Origin: a virus
Taxonomy: Duplodnaviria > Heunggongvirae > Uroviricota > Caudoviricetes
Virus record (IMG/VR): IMGVR_UViG_2648501437_000023
Length of the DNA stretch: 7,974 bases
Strand: one strand, 5' to 3'
Part shown: positions 232-7,974 of the stretch, piece after piece
Layout: each line of letters begins with the position of its first letter
Position numbering within the stretch: position 1 is the first letter of the stretch
The notes under the pieces: generated by a model
What the model was told of the DNA's origin: nothing
Seen by the model: the letters and a program-made list of their open reading frames with translations, nothing else
Database searches by the model: none
Position numbers and translations under genes: made by a program

Positions 232-441
232 ATGGGGCTGGATTGCGTGCCTATATCAACCTACTGCCGCGACGCGGGAGAAACGGTTGATGCCGTTAAC
301 AAACGGATACAAAGAGGAATATGGAAAGAAGGGGTTCATGTATTAAAAGTCGACGGAGTTAAAGAACGCTGGGTCGACTTAATAGAGGTTTCAAAATGGG
401 CAAGAAAGAACAAGGATTATTATCTCTGCCAAGAGGAGTAA
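232..441 (+). CDS. excisionase-like small DNA-binding protein (putative Xis / recombination directionality factor)
   Basis: 69-aa ORF immediately upstream of, and overlapping by 46 nt, a tyrosine integrase on the same strand. GAGGTGA Shine-Dalgarno at 223-229. Size, basic/aromatic composition and position match prophage Xis-like proteins; the family call is from memory, not a search. Confidence 0.5.
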   Translation: MGLDCVPISTYCRDAGETVDAVNKRIQRGIWKEGVHVLKVDGVKERWVDLIEVSKWARKNKDYYLCQEE

Positions 442-1574
442 CTATTCGTAAGCATAAAACTGCTTCAACACTAGTTATCACTTTCACATATAAAGGGGTT
501 CTTTGCAGGGAGCCCCTGTCTCGGCTTGAGGCAAATACACGTGGTATTAAATATGCTGAGCGCCTGCTAGGGGAGATACAAAATCAGATCGCCAGCGGAA
601 CGTTTGAATATGCGAAATATTTCCCCAGTTCCAAAAAACTGGAGTTATTCGGTGTAGTAAAGAAAACCAAAAATATTAAGTCCTATCTTGATGAATACCT
701 GAAAATTTGCATGAACCGCAATCTGTCGCCGTCAACCATTGGCGGTTACGAAAAATGTCTATCAGCACTATCAGAACTACATAAACTACATGTAACAGAA
801 TTGACGCCTGCGGTACTAAAAAATTGGATAGCCAGCCGAAAAACTAAGCTGAAAACAATCAGGAATAACCTGTCATTTCTGCGCAGCGCCATTGATGAGG
901 CTGTAACTGATGGCCTGTTGACTATTAACCCGGTAACTCTTGTCAGCGCCAGCCGGTATCACGTGGTCGACAGTAAACCGAACGCCGACGATTACGAAGT
1001 TGATCCGTTTGCGCCTGCGGAAACCAGTGCCATATATCAGCACTGCAAGTATCAGGAATGGCAGAATCTGTTCCGCTTCGCCTTCAATACAGGGCTACGC
1101 AGCTCTGAGCTATGCGCATTACGTTGGACCGATATCGACTTTATAGGTAATACAGCGCACATACAGGCGGCCAGTGTCGTAGGGGTACTTAAAGGCACCA
1201 AGACAAAAGCCGGTACCCGTAAGGTGGAGCTGAACAGTGAGGCGCTGGCGGCCCTGCAGGCGCAGAAGCAATACACCTTTATGAAAAGTGAGTTCATATT
1301 CAGCGATCCGAAAACGGGAGATCCCTGGACGAACGCCGACGCTATCCGTAAAAAAGCATGGGTGCCGACCCTGAAAAAAGCTGGTGTGCGCTACCGTAAC
1401 CCGTACCAGACGCGCCACACATTCGCCACCAGACACATTAGCCAGGGTGTAAACCTTTTCTGGCTTGCCGGGCAGATGGGGCATAAGGGGCCGGAAATGC
1501 TGTTCCGCAATTACGGTAAATACCTGGCTGAATACGACGGGAAAACCGCAATGGAATCTGGAATGACTCAATAA
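396..1574 (+). CDS. int: tyrosine recombinase (phage integrase family)
   Basis: 392-aa ORF with AGAGG Shine-Dalgarno 7 nt upstream of ATG 396. C-terminal catalytic signature visible in the translation: GLRSSEL (box I Arg), TRHTFATRH, GHKG, and terminal RNYGKY (nucleophile Tyr). N-terminus (LPRGVTIRKHK…FTYKG) resembles the arm-type DNA-binding domain of enterobacterial prophage integrases. Confidence 0.9.
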   Translation: MGKKEQGLLSLPRGVTIRKHKTASTLVITFTYKGVLCREPLSRLEANTRGIKYAERLLGEIQNQIASGTFEYAKYFPSSKKLELFGVVKKTKNIKSYLDEYLKICMNRNLSPSTIGGYEKCLSALSELHKLHVTELTPAVLKNWIASRKTKLKTIRNNLSFLRSAIDEAVTDGLLTINPVTLVSASRYHVVDSKPNADDYEVDPFAPAETSAIYQHCKYQEWQNLFRFAFNTGLRSSELCALRWTDIDFIGNTAHIQAASVVGVLKGTKTKAGTRKVELNSEALAALQAQKQYTFMKSEFIFSDPKTGDPWTNADAIRKKAWVPTLKKAGVRYRNPYQTRHTFATRHISQGVNLFWLAGQMGHKGPEMLFRNYGKYLAEYDGKTAMESGMTQ

Positions 1575-1652
1575 GACGTTTTTCGCCAAATGGCGTAATG
1601 TTCAAGTCCTTGTTATATGAAGGTATTAACGCAGGAGCCATTCAGCAACCTT

Positions 1653-1994
1653 TTAATGGTAGTTAATTTCCCTGTAGTTCTTCTGCATGTATAGAGCAAT
1701 TGCCGCTTCAATTTTCTTCAGCAGATTACTGCTTACATACTGAGGATACTGATCTGCTGGCTTCACAACATAGCGCAATTTTTCTTTGTTCATGGCGATC
1801 TCAGCGAACGGGATCACGTCACCGTCACGAACCTCATTGTTCAATGTCACAATAAACAGCTGACGTGCCGGGGAGACACGATCACTCAGTCTTCTCACGA
1901 AGAACTCGTTTGCTGTGTTTGAGTCAACAAAAGAACTGACGAGTTGAGTCCGACGCTCAATCGTCTGTATCGATCTTCTCGCTACTGTTCTCAT
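1653..1994 (-). CDS. hypothetical protein (113 aa) between int and the att site; possible moron/cargo gene
   Basis: Minus-strand ORF with AGGAG Shine-Dalgarno (plus-strand CTCCT at 2001-2005) 6 nt upstream of its ATG (1992-1994). Convergent with int. No recognisable motifs. Confidence 0.5.
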   Translation of the reverse strand: MRTVARRSIQTIERRTQLVSSFVDSNTANEFFVRRLSDRVSPARQLFIVTLNNEVRDGDVIPFAEIAMNKEKLRYVVKPADQYPQYVSSNLLKKIEAAIALYMQKNYREINYH

Positions 1995-2010
1995 GCTAGT
2001 CTCCTCAACA

Positions 2011-2071
2011 CTTCACTGGCTGTGCAGTGAAGGTACAAAAAGCCACTGATGATAACAGCGTCATCAGTGGC
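2011..2071 (-). terminator. two adjacent perfect hairpins; the second is followed by a T5 run on the minus strand (possible intrinsic terminator or structured leader)
   Basis: Hairpin 1: cttcactg (2011-2018) / cagtgaag (2025-2032), 8-bp stem, 6-nt loop. Hairpin 2: gccactgatga (2042-2052) / tcatcagtggc (2061-2071), 11-bp perfect stem, 8-nt loop; plus-strand AAAAA at 2037-2041 gives TTTTT directly 3' of the hairpin on the minus strand. Sits just upstream of the minus-strand gene 1653-1994. Confidence 0.3.
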
Positions 2072-2323
2072 CCTTGATGGTGATAACCGCAGTTACCTAA
2101 ATAGTATGATATTACCTTACGGGTAATTCTTCAACGATTGCTCTGAATTGAATAGTCTTGAAGTGCTATGAACAGCACAAAACAGCGCTAATCACCGCCC
2201 CAGTGGCGCCTAAACACTTCAAAATGTTGGACAGAATCAGGACGTTAGAGGTACTACAATATGCACGTAAAATGCACGTGAGGTATTTTAAATTAGAAAA
2301 ATCATTAATATTCAATTGGTTAA

Positions 2324-2364
2324 GAATTTTTCGGATACGGGTTCAACTCCCGCCAGCTCCACCA
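2324..2364 (+). other. ssrA: 3'-terminal fragment of tmRNA (ssrA): T-arm, acceptor 3' strand and CCA; att-site remnant, not an intact tmRNA gene
   Basis: tcggatacgggttcaactcccgccagctccacca matches the enterobacterial tmRNA 3' end as I recall it (…TCGGACGCGGGTTCAACTCCCGCCAGCTCCACCA) with two substitutions. The ~320 nt upstream (2000-2320) contains no tmRNA 5' acceptor strand or tag-peptide reading frame, so only the 3' end is present. Confidence 0.7.
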
Positions 2365-2400
2365 CTTTTTAGTTGTTTGAAGTTCAATGAAGTCTACTAA

Positions 2401-2432
2401 GCCCACACAGCACAAGCTCTGCGGGCTTTTTT
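2401..2432 (+). terminator. possible rho-independent terminator downstream of the ssrA 3' fragment
   Basis: Imperfect hairpin gcccacacag (2401-2410) / ctctgcgggc (2417-2426), 8 of 10 positions paired, followed by TTTTTT at 2427-2432. Confidence 0.35.
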
Positions 2433-2489
2433 ACGTCTATTGTCGTCCAGTGAGAATTGCTGAGAACTACGAGTTATGGCACCCTGAAT

Positions 2490-2526
2490 GGGACCCACTA
2501 AGAAGGGTCCAAAAACCGAGGGTCCC
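2490..2526. promoter_or_regulatory. GGGACCC … GGGTCC … GGGTCCC repeat set overlapping the integrase ribosome-binding site
   Basis: GGGACCC at 2490-2496 is the exact reverse complement of GGGTCCC at 2520-2526; a direct GGGTCC copy sits at 2505-2510, each followed by an A-run. The distal copy overlaps the GAGGG Shine-Dalgarno (2518-2522) of the integrase start at 2530. Confidence 0.25.
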
Positions 2527-2529
2527 AAA

Positions 2530-3759
2530 ATGGCAAAAATCGCTAAGAAGCTCACTGACACTGAAATCAAAAGCACCAAGCCAGCCGATAAAGAAATCAA
2601 CTTGTTTGACGGTGATGGTCTGATTCTACGAATCGCTCCTTTGGCGAAAGGAGGCAAGAAAAATTGGTATTTCAGGTATGCAGTACCAGTGAGCAAGAAA
2701 AGAACCAAAATGAGCCTTGGGACATATCCTCACCTTACCCTTGCAAGAGCCAGAGCCTTACGTGATGAATATCTCTCCTTTCTGGCAAATGGTGTTGATC
2801 CCCAAATCCATAACAACGATAAGGCGAAGGCATTAAAGAGTGCTACTGAGCACACTCTCCAAGCCGTAGCGCGGAAATGGTTAGATGAGAAGGTAAAGAC
2901 ATCAGGTATCTCACAAGACCATGCAGCAGACATCTGGCGCAGCTTAGAGAGAAATGTCTTTCCCGGTCTGGGTAATGTCCCTATCAATGAGATCCGACCT
3001 AAGCTCTTAAAACAACACCTTGATCCTATTGAGCAACGAGGCGTATTGGAAACTCTACGCCGTATCATTTCACGTCTGAATGAAATCTTCCGGTGGGCAG
3101 CTACTGAAGAACTTATTGAGTTCAACCCGGCTGACAACCTTGGTCAAAGATTCAGTAAACCAAAAAAGCAAAATATGCCTGCCCTTCCCCCAAGCGAATT
3201 GCCAAGGTTTATGGAATCTTTGACGAATGCGTCAATCCGGTTGGAAACACGTATGCTAATTGAATGGCAATTGTTGACATGGGTTCGTCCGGGTGAAGCC
3301 GTTCGCGCAAGGTGGTCTGATATTGATACAACCAACAGCATTTGGAACATTCCTGCTGATTTCATGAAAATGAAAAAGCTTCACAAAGTTCCTTTGAGTA
3401 AAGAAGCTTTGCGCATCCTTGAATTAATGAAATCAATAAGTGGGCATAGAGAATGGGTTTTCCCCAGCATAAAAGCGCCTCTTAATCATATGCATGAACA
3501 AACAGCCAACGCAGCTATCATCCGAATGGGGTTCGGAGGCGAGCTTGTAGCTCACGGTATGCGTTCTATTGCACGAACAGCGGCAGAGGAGTCTGGTAAA
3601 TTCAGAGCTGAAGTTCTTGAGGCAGCGCTTGCCCACTCGAAAAAAGATGAAATTATCGCAGCATACAATCGTGCAGAATATCTGATAGAGCGACAGAGTT
3701 TGATGCAATGGTGGAGTGATTACGTTCAAGCTCAAAGATCAAATGCTCTGGTAGCCTAA
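2530..3759 (+). CDS. int: P4-type (IntA/CP4-57-like) tyrosine integrase
   Basis: N-terminus MAKIAKKLTDTEIKSTKPADKEINLFDGDGLILRI matches the P4-family arm-binding domain. Catalytic motifs VRPGEAVRARWSDID, AHGMRSIART, LAHS, AYNRAEY. GAGGG Shine-Dalgarno 7 nt upstream of ATG 2530; the track's 2488 start adds 14 residues with no RBS, so 2530 is preferred. Lies about 165 bp downstream of the ssrA 3' fragment, the typical ssrA-int arrangement. Confidence 0.9.
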   Translation: MAKIAKKLTDTEIKSTKPADKEINLFDGDGLILRIAPLAKGGKKNWYFRYAVPVSKKRTKMSLGTYPHLTLARARALRDEYLSFLANGVDPQIHNNDKAKALKSATEHTLQAVARKWLDEKVKTSGISQDHAADIWRSLERNVFPGLGNVPINEIRPKLLKQHLDPIEQRGVLETLRRIISRLNEIFRWAATEELIEFNPADNLGQRFSKPKKQNMPALPPSELPRFMESLTNASIRLETRMLIEWQLLTWVRPGEAVRARWSDIDTTNSIWNIPADFMKMKKLHKVPLSKEALRILELMKSISGHREWVFPSIKAPLNHMHEQTANAAIIRMGFGGELVAHGMRSIARTAAEESGKFRAEVLEAALAHSKKDEIIAAYNRAEYLIERQSLMQWWSDYVQAQRSNALVA

Positions 3760-3797: not shown

Positions 3798-4214
3798 ATG
3801 GAAACCCTATTCAAAGTTTTTGAAAAATTTAGTTCCAGACCACTTTTTTTTATTTTTTTCGGACTCTCACTTTGTGAATTTTTTCAGAAACAATCTGTTC
3901 TGATGAATCCATCAGCAGATAACATCGCGAAATTATTCGCAGCCATGATATTAGTTGTTTTTTTTACTTGGGGATTTGAATGGCTAATCTTCAAGTTCAA
4001 TGTAAACCTTGAACCTCATGATCAAGGCGATATTGGACCAACAATTGGAACGGCTACTTTAGCTGTATACTTAGTTTATGCCTTTCACTTTCTCAGTGAA
4101 AATCCTGAAGCATTAAATTTAAAGTTATTAACTAACTCTGGCTTTATATACAGCACAACTCTATTATTATTCTCATTAGAATGCATGAAGCTTAGAAGAC
4201 TTAAACAAAAATAA
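3798..4214 (+). CDS. small integral membrane protein (138 aa, 3-4 predicted TM helices), function unknown
   Basis: Hydrophobic stretches PLFFIFFGLSLCEFF, IAKLFAAMILVVFFTWGF, IGTATLAVYLVYAFHFL, GFIYSTTLLLFSL. AT-rich like the downstream operon. Weak RBS, so start and expression are uncertain. Confidence 0.45.
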   Translation: METLFKVFEKFSSRPLFFIFFGLSLCEFFQKQSVLMNPSADNIAKLFAAMILVVFFTWGFEWLIFKFNVNLEPHDQGDIGPTIGTATLAVYLVYAFHFLSENPEALNLKLLTNSGFIYSTTLLLFSLECMKLRRLKQK

Positions 4215-4285: not shown

Positions 4286-6052
4286 TTATGGTAGCATCAT
4301 TGATACATAATCCACACCAATCCTTGAGCTATACTGAGACGCTATAGCCTGATATCTTTCTGCATAACCAGTTCTCAGTTGAGATTTAAGTTTGAGTCGG
4401 ACAGGAACATTTTGCACGTTGCCATCCATATTACTTAAAAACACGGCAGAAATAATATTTTTTTCTTCGCCATCAACTGTTGTTCCATGATTCAACACCA
4501 CCATATAATCAACAACAGGAAGCGTTTTATCCCCTTCGAAAATAGAGAGATATTTTCTTTGATTTTTATGCATTACATATATATATTTCGAATGTTCAGC
4601 AAATGGCAATGCTTTACTCTGACTGGCGTTAAAAAGCTCCAGAACTTTAATGAGCCTGTGCGGACTTAATCTTACATGGTGAGGGTCGTTACCCTGAGTA
4701 GGAACCAAATCACATGCCGCAGATACACATAAATACCATTTGTTCGACTCTGTATCAAAGAAAATAGTGCCAGTAGAAATATGACCATCTTCAAAATTCT
4801 TTGAAGACAAATTCATATTTAAAGCATGATACATTTCGTGATAAGTATCATTATTTGATGGCAGATCCATTTTTGAAGAGCAATATTGGAGCAATGCAGC
4901 AACTCCGCTGTTAGCGTATTCATTTGAATAGCTATCAAAAACACTTTTGATAAATTCATCCAGCGTATTATTATTTTTAAGTCTTTGATAAAGCTCTTCT
5001 GATAAATTACCAAATACAAAGTCAATATTTCTACATCTAATATCAGGCGAGTCTGATTTTAATATCTCATTTAACCACGCAGCTTGACCGTAATGATCGT
5101 TAGCCAAATGATTTACAAAAGATAAAGCCTCAGCTTCGATTGCATTCTGAATTTCAGATTTTATTAACTGATAATAAGATGGTTTCCATTCAATGAGAGA
5201 ATCATTGAGAGTTTGCCAAATCCTATCTCCATCGTTTTCATGATCATCTTGAACCTTATGAAATAGGGAGACAAAGATATTACCACATTGAATCCATTTT
5301 ACTCCGCTTTCATCACCCCGAATGACATTGCCAGATGTGTTGCTAGAAATAATTGCATTTCTAGACACAGCATATTCTGCAATCATTTTTGCAATGAAGT
5401 TTTTATCCTTTTGTTCCTCCAACACAGCATCATCATGTATTAATCTTTTAATTCTTCTACAAGGCTTACTGTCTTTAATATAGGCTATTGTTTCATCTCT
5501 TGTGAGAGCTTTATTACCATTATCATTTAAGTTCGGTAATACAACGTCTTCCCAATAACTTTGGACATCTTCATTATCGTAGTCAATGATCAAGCTGTTG
5601 ATATCCAGAGCACCTTTGAGAGTCGATGATATCTGCATCCAAACCGTTTCTAAATTCTCTCTAGTATATATTACAATCATATTTAAATGATCGGAGTCTT
5701 TCAAATCTTGTAATAGTTTAAGTGTTTTATCAGGTGCATTATTATCAAGATGATAATCTACAATAATAAGATCTGATTTTCTAATCCGATCCACATCGAA
5801 ATTAACAGAACCATTGTCAACATCACAAATCATATTTTTAGATTGAAAAAAGCTCTCAAGAGTAGCGGCTCGTTTAGATGAGTCAATTTTGTTGTAGTCT
5901 AAATCAACTTCGTTATTCAACGCCCTGATTGATTCAGAATACGTCAGAAAATCGTCATCAATCATGACAACGGAACGAATTGCATTTTCGCAGAAAGTTT
6001 TCTGGACAAGAGAATTATAATTTGCCACTGTCATATTAGAACTCCACTCCAT
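4286..6052 (-). CDS. response-regulator-like protein: N-terminal receiver (REC) domain plus ~450-aa C-terminal domain of unknown function (candidate effector)
   Basis: 588-aa ORF. REC hallmarks: VVMIDDD (acidic pair, D32-D34), DLIIVDYHLDNNAPDKTLKLL (phospho-acceptor Asp D99; codon checked at 5756-5758), NMIVIYT (conserved Thr), STLK (Lys). Rest of the protein shows no HTH or other recognisable output motif. Alternative start at 6034 (MTVANY…) has a GGAG Shine-Dalgarno 7 nt upstream and sits 1 nt after the kinase stop. Confidence 0.8.
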   Translation of the reverse strand: MEWSSNMTVANYNSLVQKTFCENAIRSVVMIDDDFLTYSESIRALNNEVDLDYNKIDSSKRAATLESFFQSKNMICDVDNGSVNFDVDRIRKSDLIIVDYHLDNNAPDKTLKLLQDLKDSDHLNMIVIYTRENLETVWMQISSTLKGALDINSLIIDYDNEDVQSYWEDVVLPNLNDNGNKALTRDETIAYIKDSKPCRRIKRLIHDDAVLEEQKDKNFIAKMIAEYAVSRNAIISSNTSGNVIRGDESGVKWIQCGNIFVSLFHKVQDDHENDGDRIWQTLNDSLIEWKPSYYQLIKSEIQNAIEAEALSFVNHLANDHYGQAAWLNEILKSDSPDIRCRNIDFVFGNLSEELYQRLKNNNTLDEFIKSVFDSYSNEYANSGVAALLQYCSSKMDLPSNNDTYHEMYHALNMNLSSKNFEDGHISTGTIFFDTESNKWYLCVSAACDLVPTQGNDPHHVRLSPHRLIKVLELFNASQSKALPFAEHSKYIYVMHKNQRKYLSIFEGDKTLPVVDYMVVLNHGTTVDGEEKNIISAVFLSNMDGNVQNVPVRLKLKSQLRTGYAERYQAIASQYSSRIGVDYVSMMLP

Positions 6053-7754
6053 TGAACTGGATCACAAAATTAGCGCCATCTTTTATTAAATAGTTATCGC
6101 CTTCATCAGGTTCTGAATACCATATTTTATGATGTGCAACAGCAAGGTTTTCTCGACATAGATACAGACCTACCCCATGTCCATTTGCTCTTTTGCTATA
6201 AAATAGTTCAAATAGTCGCGGGATATCATCGGTATCAATTGCCGGACCAGAATTTGCTATGATAACCAAAGAATTCACAAAACCAATCTTTATGAGCCTA
6301 TTATTTGACAGACTGACCCAATACATTGCATTGTTGATAATATTAGTAAAAACAGGATAGATCCTTGATGGTATATCTGTTATTGCGATTTGCTTAAACT
6401 CTTCACTAAATTCAATAGTTATTCGTTGCCGTTCGAAACGCTCCCCAAAGAACTTCAGGACATAATCCATGATATTTTTTCCAGTTATTCTCTGCCTGGA
6501 TTGATAACCTGATATTTTCAAAGGTGATAAGAAACGTATTTGTTGAGTAAGCGATCTGTGAGCATTTAACGCCAATGAAAAACCAGGGTGTTCTTTTACA
6601 GAAGTAGGAAGAGAGTTTAGTCCTCTGGTTACCATAGAATCCATTTCTTCAAGTTCATGAGATATTATCTCAACACTAATACCTAACTGTGCAAGCGCGT
6701 TTAAACTTTTAGCTTTTTCTTCAAAATATGAGCGTTCTTCTTCAGATAATGAGAATGCTGAATCTAAGTTTATACCTTCAAATAATCTATCGAGACCTTT
6801 TATTATTGATTGATATTTGAAAGTTAGGGTATCAACTGACTCAACATATAAACTATCGAGCAAATTAAACACATTTTCAATTTGTGAATCATTATCTATT
6901 GAATCAACAACTGATATAGTTTTAGCATAATAATCACTTCGATCATCCTTTATTTCATCGGCCCATTTTTTTAAAAGAGAATGTATCTTCTCCTCTATCG
7001 TGTTATTAAACTTAGTTAGTTTAGAATTAATAATACCTTGATTTTTTTCAAGGTGATTTTTCGCTGACAATGAAGGCTCAAGTTTATTTAATTCAGAATC
7101 AAGTTTATTAATTGCTAACTTCATTTGTAGAATATACGCAGAGAACTCATTAAATTTATCTCTGTAGTCTCTATATTTCTCTTCATACATTCCAAGTTTT
7201 GGAGGTTTGATAGGCGTTTTAATTTCACTGCGCAACGCATCTAAGTTTGTAAGATCACTGTCTATAATTTTAAGATAGTTTAAATCTAACGAACCATCAG
7301 TTTTATCAAGCTTAGTTTTCAGCCTTTTAACAGCCTCCAAGGAAGCATCAAGAACTGGTGTCTGATTCTTCAAAGCTTCTGAAAAACTTTTTTGTGTTGA
7401 TTTTCGAGCTTGTTGTTGAGCAGATTTTCTTAACTCTTTTTCACGCTTAACTTGTTCTAAAAGCTCTTTACGGTCATCAGAACGTGAACCAAAAAATCTA
7501 TCAGCAAGTTCAGTTAACAAATTAGATATAATAGTTTTCAGTTCTCTTGCAGCCTGGTTTCTTATGAATCCCTCTCTCCCCGACTTATCTTTCAGCTCTT
7601 TATTACTGGATTGAGTAATTCCAATATAACCAAAAATCCTTCTATTAGACCAATAATATCGCCCTGCATTCCATGAACGTCTTTCTTCTATCTGGAAGAA
7701 ATCATTATCTACTCGACCATAAGGTAATACTCTCAAGCTATCCCTAAAAATCAT
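6036..7754 (-). CDS. soluble histidine-kinase-like protein: ~350-aa coiled-coil-rich N-terminal region, HisKA-like H-box, HATPase_c domain
   Basis: 572-aa ORF. H-box GISVEIISHELEEM (His366; codon checked at 6657-6659). N-box PVFTNIINNAMYW, G1 IANSGPAID, F-box LFELFYSKR, G2 GHGVGL (codons checked at 6165-6182). No hydrophobic TM segments; N-terminal half is K/E/L-rich. Stop overlaps the start of the downstream REC gene. Confidence 0.8.
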   Translation of the reverse strand: MIFRDSLRVLPYGRVDNDFFQIEERRSWNAGRYYWSNRRIFGYIGITQSSNKELKDKSGREGFIRNQAARELKTIISNLLTELADRFFGSRSDDRKELLEQVKREKELRKSAQQQARKSTQKSFSEALKNQTPVLDASLEAVKRLKTKLDKTDGSLDLNYLKIIDSDLTNLDALRSEIKTPIKPPKLGMYEEKYRDYRDKFNEFSAYILQMKLAINKLDSELNKLEPSLSAKNHLEKNQGIINSKLTKFNNTIEEKIHSLLKKWADEIKDDRSDYYAKTISVVDSIDNDSQIENVFNLLDSLYVESVDTLTFKYQSIIKGLDRLFEGINLDSAFSLSEEERSYFEEKAKSLNALAQLGISVEIISHELEEMDSMVTRGLNSLPTSVKEHPGFSLALNAHRSLTQQIRFLSPLKISGYQSRQRITGKNIMDYVLKFFGERFERQRITIEFSEEFKQIAITDIPSRIYPVFTNIINNAMYWVSLSNNRLIKIGFVNSLVIIANSGPAIDTDDIPRLFELFYSKRANGHGVGLYLCRENLAVAHHKIWYSEPDEGDNYLIKDGANFVIQFNGVEF

Positions 7755-7974
7755 TAGTCCTGCATACTTTTTGGCCTTAAGATCAAAGTGGGAATGTTCA
7801 CGTTCAGTATGTGATGTATTTTGTGAAAGGAATTCAAACGTTCCTATCTGAAGCTCAAATGGGCCGACCCCTGCGTGATCCTACCCACGTAATATGGACA
7901 CAGGCCTAAGCGAGGTTCTTGTTTTCAAATTGTTCCGGACTGAGGCCGCCACACCAACTGTGCCGCCGCCACCG

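Follow-up and report, generated by a model that had tools for sequence, protein, structure and literature searches.

At the right end of the 7,974-nucleotide (nt) stretch of viral DNA analysed here (IMG/VR record IMGVR_UViG_2648501437_000023; the window), a gene for a kinase-like protein is called on the minus strand from an ATG at position 7754, and the base composition of the DNA changes abruptly a short distance upstream of this codon. The locus raises the question of whether the gene begins where it is called or has lost its native 5′ end, and of what the sequence beyond it represents. The evidence presented here indicates that a deletion associated with the insertion sequence (IS) IS3 very probably truncated the kinase-like gene, and that the open reading frame (ORF) is a 3′ remnant containing codons 377-988.

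Translation of the kinase frame confirmed the description of the upstream region given in the initial annotation. The 42 codons between 7880 and the ATG (7754-7752) form an open run, which is preceded by a TAG stop at 7883-7881, and none of them is ATG, GTG or TTG (0/42; the sole near-cognate is one ATA). The ORF listing likewise begins the ORF at 7754 (6036-7754, 572 amino acids (aa)). The ribosome-binding site is as weak as had been noted, with an AGGA located 3 nt 5′ of the ATG (gcAGGActaATG) being the only Shine-Dalgarno-like element. By chance, an open run of 42 codons is only mildly unlikely; it becomes significant because full-length homologues have the same amino acids at residues 377-416 (40 of 40 identical).

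These homologues were identified by a protein search using the 614-codon open frame as a query, which returned 988-aa proteins with 99% identity (P0003-P0013), including sequences from Serratia liquefaciens, Klebsiella and Salmonella. Window positions 7874-6039 correspond to their residues 377-988, and the pairwise alignment with the reference protein P0004 opens with window residue A (7874-7872) at residue 377. The homologues therefore extend N-terminally of MIFRDSL, the start of the called protein, and reach 376 residues beyond the last native codon of the window. Together with the IS3 sequence that begins at 7876, this bears out the proposal that an insertion or rearrangement deprived the gene of its native 5′ end and promoter.

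Domain searches identified what the window copy retains. In P0004, Pfam recognizes HATPase_c_3 (PF13589; residues 28-137), HEF_HK (PF19191; 772-830) and HATPase_c (PF02518; 878-969). The window ORF matched HATPase_c (E 2e-11) and HEF_HK (26.4 bits, cutoff 24.1), and HATPase_c_3 was absent from the ORF together with its 42 upstream codons, leaving two of the three domains. The intact protein is a soluble GHKL protein composed of an N-terminal MORC-like HATPase_c_3, a beta-rich middle, a coiled coil, an HEF_HK H-box and a C-terminal HATPase_c. The H-box (SHELEE) is conserved, with S781-H782-E783-L784-E785 invariant in 37 homologues. Met417, the residue encoded by the ATG at 7754, is internal and invariant in 21 full-length homologues with 61-99% identity. 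An AlphaFold model of the 988-aa protein, poor overall (predicted local distance difference test score (pLDDT) 60, predicted template modelling score (pTM) 0.34; blocks within 331-420 at pLDDT 61-85) and used for local secondary structure only, places Met417 within the predicted strand 415-420, part of a beta-rich domain (~309-462), and the break at residue 376 between predicted strands 360-367 and 382-388.

HEF_HK proteins together with Response_reg_2 proteins form a two-component-like family defined by comparative genomics alone and linked to C5 methylases and paraMORC ATPases (PMC8011034, Bellieny-Rabelo et al. 2021; PMC2292703, Iyer et al. 2008). Since HATPase_c_3 is missing in 34 of 222 published HEF_HK proteins (PMC8011034), the window ORF could be a genuine short protein of the HEF_HK plus HATPase_c type ('group 2') that starts at 7754, with the upstream open frame being coincidental. 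RefSeq calls the ORF an intact coding sequence (CDS), and homologues annotated from the equivalent Met, in which the initial annotation saw a possible argument against truncation, do exist: proteins annotated with a length of exactly 572 aa and ~83% identity occur in several species (P0079-P0088). However, the sole example examined, from Klebsiella pneumoniae (L006 4734-7719, CP141543.1), is the downstream half of a frameshifted gene. Its upstream region contains a 314-aa HATPase_c_3 ORF and a C5 methylase gene, translation revealed that an otherwise full-length, 83% identical orthologue is frameshifted near residue 307, and the shared Met is the first ATG past a lesion. Further against a short isoform are the complete identity of the 40 upstream codons to residues 377-416, the invariant, internal position of Met417 within a predicted beta-strand, and the AGGA before the ATG, whose bases code for A-G-L in the intact gene. 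Moreover, a search of 7500-7974 on both strands detected no sigma-70-like promoter and no terminator. A natural start at 7754 is thus very unlikely. The gene is called there because this ATG is the first start codon left after truncation, and the segment 7755-7875 has been reduced to an untranslated leader or to dead coding sequence. The other 572-aa entries among P0079-P0088 may be similar fragments, which could inflate the published 'group 2' class.

The position of the break was determined by alignment. The guanine-plus-cytosine (GC) content is 0.34 over 6036-7875, 0.67 over 7855-7875 and 0.56 over 7876-7974, and a 200-nt profile stays at 0.27-0.40 from ~3800 to ~7800. The change from AT-rich to GC-rich DNA is thus real, while its proposed location at ~7861 requires correction: the junction lies ~15 nt further right, at 7875/7876. 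The GC-rich string ggccgccacaccaactgtgccgccgccaccg that had been placed at ~7861 is found at 7944-7974, and the first 15 GC-rich bases past 7861 (gggccgacccctgcg) belong to the native gene, where they form codons 377-381. At the DNA level, identity between the window and the intact gene of L002 extends to 7875, and from 7876 onwards the two are unrelated; position 7875 is the third and last base of codon 376 in full-length homologues.

The sequence on the other side of the break is IS3, a textbook element. The initial annotation had suggested comparing 7861-7974 with mobile elements, and an IS3 end was identified from 7876 onwards. When 7600-7974 was searched by megablast against a database of 5426 complete Escherichia coli genomes, 100% matches were obtained for which the underlying annotation reads 'ATP-binding protein' next to 'IS3-like element IS3 family transposase'. 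The terminal 99 bases of the window are present in 3598 of the 5426 genomes, at a median of 3 places per genome. In strain E2865 (L001), the IS3 copy that starts at the equivalent of window position 7876 is exactly 1258 bp long (L001 9277-10534), with first bases TGATCCTACCCA and last bases TGGGTAAGATCA; its ends read TGATC(C/T)TACCCA..., and 1256 of its 1258 bases are identical to IS3B of E. coli K-12. The window shares with K-12 IS3A the end sequence ...GGGTAGGATCA and the orfB stop, and with E. coli IS3 in general (IS3 family, IS3 group; K-12 IS3A-E) the terminal sequence TGATCCTACCCACGTAATATGG... and the C-terminus and stop of orfB. Window positions 7876-7914 read TGATCCTACCCACG..., the opposite end in L001 reads TGATCTTACCCAGC... 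as its reverse complement, and ~28 of 39 positions are common to both. The element thus has the terminal inverted repeats of IS3 (beginning with 5′-TG, ending with CA-3′, ~39 nt), of which the window itself contains only the right one (IRR). Likewise, complete genomes sharing the junction carry an annotated 1258-bp orfA/orfB element with a programmed frameshift, of which the window holds only 22 orfB codons. Judged by its sequence, 7876-7974 is the IRR end of IS3, with the transposase encoded on the minus strand and reading towards the kinase-like gene.

Recognition of IS3 also accounts for other features of the right end. The TAG at 7883-7881 falls within the terminal repeat. The minus-strand frames described as open to the window edge are indeed open, although all three are (15-30 codons) rather than two, and the meaningful one is the C-terminus of IS3 orfB. 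No Rfam family was detected in 7755-7974. In strain E2865, the IS3 copy at the junction has an internal stop, which is one of its two differences from K-12 IS3B; the copies in strains AMSHJX01 (L011) and 120899 (L012) are annotated as intact.

The junction between the kinase-like gene and IS3 is spanned in 483 of the 5426 complete E. coli genomes. The edge of the window is probably an assembly break inside a multi-copy IS, and a chimeric contig end produced by a collapsed repeated IS could in principle mimic such a junction. With the identical junction present in 483 complete, mostly long-read genomes with consistent flanking genes, an assembly artefact is scarcely conceivable.

What lies beyond the far end of IS3 bears on whether the element simply inserted into the gene or accompanied a deletion. 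IS3 frequently enters genes (for example yaiT in K-12), and the far side of this copy is outside the window, so the 5′ part of the gene, the methylase and the rest of the island might be located just past its edge. In E2865, however, the far (left, IRL) end of IS3 abuts a pseudogene annotated as 'alpha amylase C-terminal domain-containing protein, missing N-terminus' (ygaQ), followed by glaH-lhgO-gabDTP. The same order of IS3 and truncated ygaQ was observed in AMSHJX01 and 120899, which come from other continents and hosts; the far side is therefore truncated ygaQ and then glaH in all three complete genomes checked, each of which has the identical junction. Relative to a full-length ygaQ (L008), the sequence following IS3 starts at ~nt 1146 of the 2253-nt gene, and tRNA-Ile and ypjA lie upstream of the join point in L008.

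The flanks of the E2865 copy are gcg and aga, without a 3-bp target duplication, in contrast to K-12 IS3B, which is flanked by GAT/GAT. IS3A was set aside as a comparator, its left end being itself trimmed, and IS3B and IS3C were taken instead. Unlike an ordinary K-12 IS3, this copy thus lacks a target duplication and sits between two unrelated truncated genes; we gave the two truncated flanks more weight than the missing duplication. The lack of a duplication is attributable to the associated deletion, and it concerns the history of the copy rather than its identity as IS3.

Intact loci of this ssrA-integrated, mobilisable island show what is missing. Their order is integrase, 138-aa gene, Response_reg_2 gene, 988-aa gene, C5 methylase and, further on, relaxase. 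Past codon 376 they continue with the remaining part of the gene, a C5 cytosine methylase that overlaps it (PF00145, E 7e-59), small ORFs, a relaxase and more recombinases, and the methylase is located directly upstream of the kinase-like gene in L002-L004 and L006. The 3′ remnant was found in 561 of the 5426 complete E. coli genomes. By megablast, the methylase and the 5′ 1.1 kb of the gene matched none (0/5426). Because the far end of IS3 abuts a truncated ygaQ, the flanks are gcg/aga and the 5′ part is gone from E. coli, we infer a deletion. A simple insertion with the remaining parts still in place is highly improbable.

These results are best explained by an IS3-associated deletion that left IS3 abutting codon 376 at one end and ~nt 1146 of the chromosomal ygaQ at the other. 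It may have arisen either as an adjacent deletion from a single inserted IS3 copy or by recombination between two directly oriented IS3 copies. The event removed the promoter and the first 375 codons, including the N-terminal ATPase domain, along with the C5 methylase, the relaxase, the distal integrases, the right-hand attachment (att) site and the chromosome up to ygaQ. The 42 open codons are leftover coding sequence, closed by a stop in the IS3 terminal repeat. The deletion is of single origin. IS3-family insertions associated with deletions and lacking target duplications are known from experimental evolution (PMC11708052). The locus resembles the IS150/IS3-family deletions of the E. coli long-term evolution experiment (PMC11708052) in its non-duplicated, unrelated flanks and in the multi-kilobase, one-sided loss, but differs from them in being natural and fixed, in ~9% of complete E. 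coli genomes. The explanation is an ordinary one; events of this kind are already known, and it will not surprise a specialist. In E. coli O103:H2 CEC12044 (L005 3960-3990, NZ_AP038983.1), IS3 has been lost entirely through a secondary deletion that also took 2 bp to the left of the element and 20 bp to the right, and the kinase remnant now directly abuts ygaQ.

To assess whether the remnant is still under constraint, codon differences from the intact copy were counted. The remnant has 5 nonsynonymous and 4 synonymous differences, compared with 4 nonsynonymous and 34 synonymous in the three neighbouring genes together (Fisher p = 0.007); against the Response_reg_2 gene alone (2 nonsynonymous, 12 synonymous) the p value is 0.066. 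At each of the five nonsynonymous sites, the state of the remnant is absent from almost all of the full-length proteins with 99% identity that were compared; one protein shares D at one site. These differences are a weak indication of relaxed constraint. Some genomes have decayed further: H21 carries an IS1 insertion, H60 a shorter remnant, and L005 a Response_reg_2 gene cut by another IS3-family element. We infer that the remnant is non-functional. A cluster of 453-aa 'partial' Response_reg_2 proteins (P0129, 1605 members) was considered as a sign of widespread decay and rejected, since 560 complete genomes contain the 3′ end of this gene; the partial sequences are probably contig-end fragments.

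Alternatively, the remnant may have been salvaged: transcribed by read-through from IS3, it could still phosphorylate the Response_reg_2 protein and act as a constitutive orphan signalling or defence module. The IS3 orfAB genes do point at the remnant, no terminator is predicted from the orfB stop (7906) to the ATG at 7754, the H-box and HATPase_c are intact, both ORFs are intact in ~560 genomes, and the Response_reg_2 gene has a 2:12 ratio. The promoter search of 7500-7974 gave no support for an outward promoter in the IRR. Against a salvaged module, the product is predicted from the structural model to begin within a folded domain, its ribosome-binding site is poor, its 5:4 ratio is raised relative to the neighbouring genes, decay has occurred in some genomes (H21, H60, L005), and divergence is too low for intact ORFs to imply selection. 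We consider continued function of this kind unlikely. A related scenario, which we regard as decidedly unlikely, is a disarming event rather than neutral decay: a restriction-modification-like conflict system would have lost its C5 methylase and its N-terminal ATPase 'head' in one IS3-associated deletion, and ~10% of E. coli would have kept the kinase core and the receiver-effector pair, transcribed from IS3, as a module that is constitutive or rewired.

Several observations weigh against an IS3-associated deletion that left a dead remnant. The excess of nonsynonymous changes consists of only nine differences in total, and all five nonsynonymous changes are at variable positions. The remnant and Response_reg_2 ORFs are intact at ≥99% identity in ~560 genomes, which is compatible with recent common descent and with retained function too; because identity is at least 99% across all copies, intact ORFs are expected even without selection. 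K-12 IS3C also lacks a perfect 3-bp duplication, making a missing duplication weak evidence by itself. No precursor state was seen in the 5426 genomes: none contains the intact gene, and a synthetic junction query representing IS3 simply inserted in an intact ygaQ matched 0/5426. Finally, the window ends inside IS3, and the ygaQ side for its own strain is deduced from genomes with the identical junction.

The comparison with known systems places the remnant within the HEF_HK family. Like the pairs described previously (PMC8011034), it combines HEF_HK and HATPase_c with an overlapping Response_reg_2 neighbour. The intact orthologues belong to 'group 1' of that survey (HATPase_c_3, HEF_HK and HATPase_c, with a C5 methylase directly upstream), whereas the E. 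coli copy lacks HATPase_c_3 and the methylase and resembles 'group 2', yet is a fragment. In the literature searched, neither experimental work on the function of the HEF_HK/Response_reg_2 family nor biochemical data on autophosphorylation or phosphotransfer to the receiver Asp was found. PADLOC defence models gave no meaningful match to the full-length, Response_reg_2 or 138-aa proteins. A match to the N-terminus of NCBIfam NF050001 ('BbrUII/HgiDII family restriction enzyme') was obtained for the lost N-terminal GHKL domain (P0004 13-138); at E 1.5e-13 it falls well short of the cutoff for the family, and the relationship to these restriction enzymes is at the domain level only. This match agrees with the overlap, in intact loci, between the C5 methylase and the start of the gene, and suggests a role of the restriction-modification type for the intact cassette.

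These findings have consequences for annotation. The 572-aa 'ATP-binding protein' (WP_000577251 and variants) heads clusters of ~2000 member sequences. RefSeq lists it as an intact CDS for several hundred complete genomes of E. coli; being a 5′-truncated fragment, it ought to carry a pseudogene flag. The survey of HEF_HK architectures calls for caution, since IS truncation or frameshifts may account for at least a part of its 'group 2' proteins, which would then be fragments and not a natural short form. The locus also records how an island at ssrA, the gene for transfer-messenger RNA (tmRNA), became locked in E. coli, with its distal att site, relaxase and methylase lost.

Table 1. Coordinates of the features at the truncated kinase-like locus and in the remainder of the window
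Feature	Position	Strand	Remarks
Breakpoint	7875..7876		Last native base of the kinase-like gene meets the first base of the IS3 IRR; DNA and protein alignment
IS3 right (IRR) end, assigned by sequence	7876..7974	-	100% identical to L001 9277-9375; window stops inside the element
Imperfect terminal inverted repeat (IRR), ~39 nt	7876-7914		IS3
IS3 orfB (InsF), last 22 codons	7974-7909	-	Stop TAG 7908-7906
Codons 377-416 of the ancestral gene	7755..7875	-	In frame, no start codon; 40/40 residues identical to P0004
Annotated 572-aa 'ATP-binding protein'	6036..7754	-	Residues 417-988; rest of the middle domain, long helices, HEF_HK (DHp) H-box, C-terminal HATPase_c
Response_reg_2 (receiver-like) partner, 588 aa (582 aa from the annotated start)	4286..6052	-	Overlaps the stop of the kinase-like gene
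Conserved 138-aa island gene	3798..4214	+	No Pfam, PADLOC or NCBIfam match
Island tyrosine integrase, P4-type	2488..3759	+	Pfam Arm-DNA-bind_3, Phage_int_M, Phage_integrase
ssrA (tmRNA) 3′ end, left attachment repeat of the island	2339-2364	+	Rfam tmRNA local match to the 3′ end only; ~26-35 nt
Prophage-type integrase	396-1574		

The remainder of the island lies to the left of the remnant, and its integrase gene adjoins smpB/ssrA in the intact loci L002 and L003. The suggestion that an island boundary may lie at the right end of the window holds in a modified form: the IS3/ygaQ junction is the present right edge of the ssrA island remainder, a secondary boundary rather than the native one. A tRNA or tmRNA att site at the right edge was considered and rejected, as ARAGORN found no such gene there and the only tmRNA-like sequence is that at 2339-2364. 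This 26-mer from the ssrA 3′ end is present in a single copy, with no second copy at ≤3 mismatches in the window, including 7755-7974, and no direct repeat joining the two island ends was found.

In its surrounding context (2150-2432), the ssrA fragment has a terminator-like hairpin after it; the hairpin matches Rfam IsrM at both ends of the family (53 bits, gathering score 376). The location of the fragment between the prophage-type and island integrases suggests that two elements stand in tandem at ssrA, the fragment being an internal att repeat. The interval between the two integrases is ~0.9 kb in the window (1574-2488) and ~1.7 kb in E2865 (L001 2241-3931). E2865 holds a DUF4760 gene (909 bp) between the integrases that the window appears to lack, and the segment is variable among strains.
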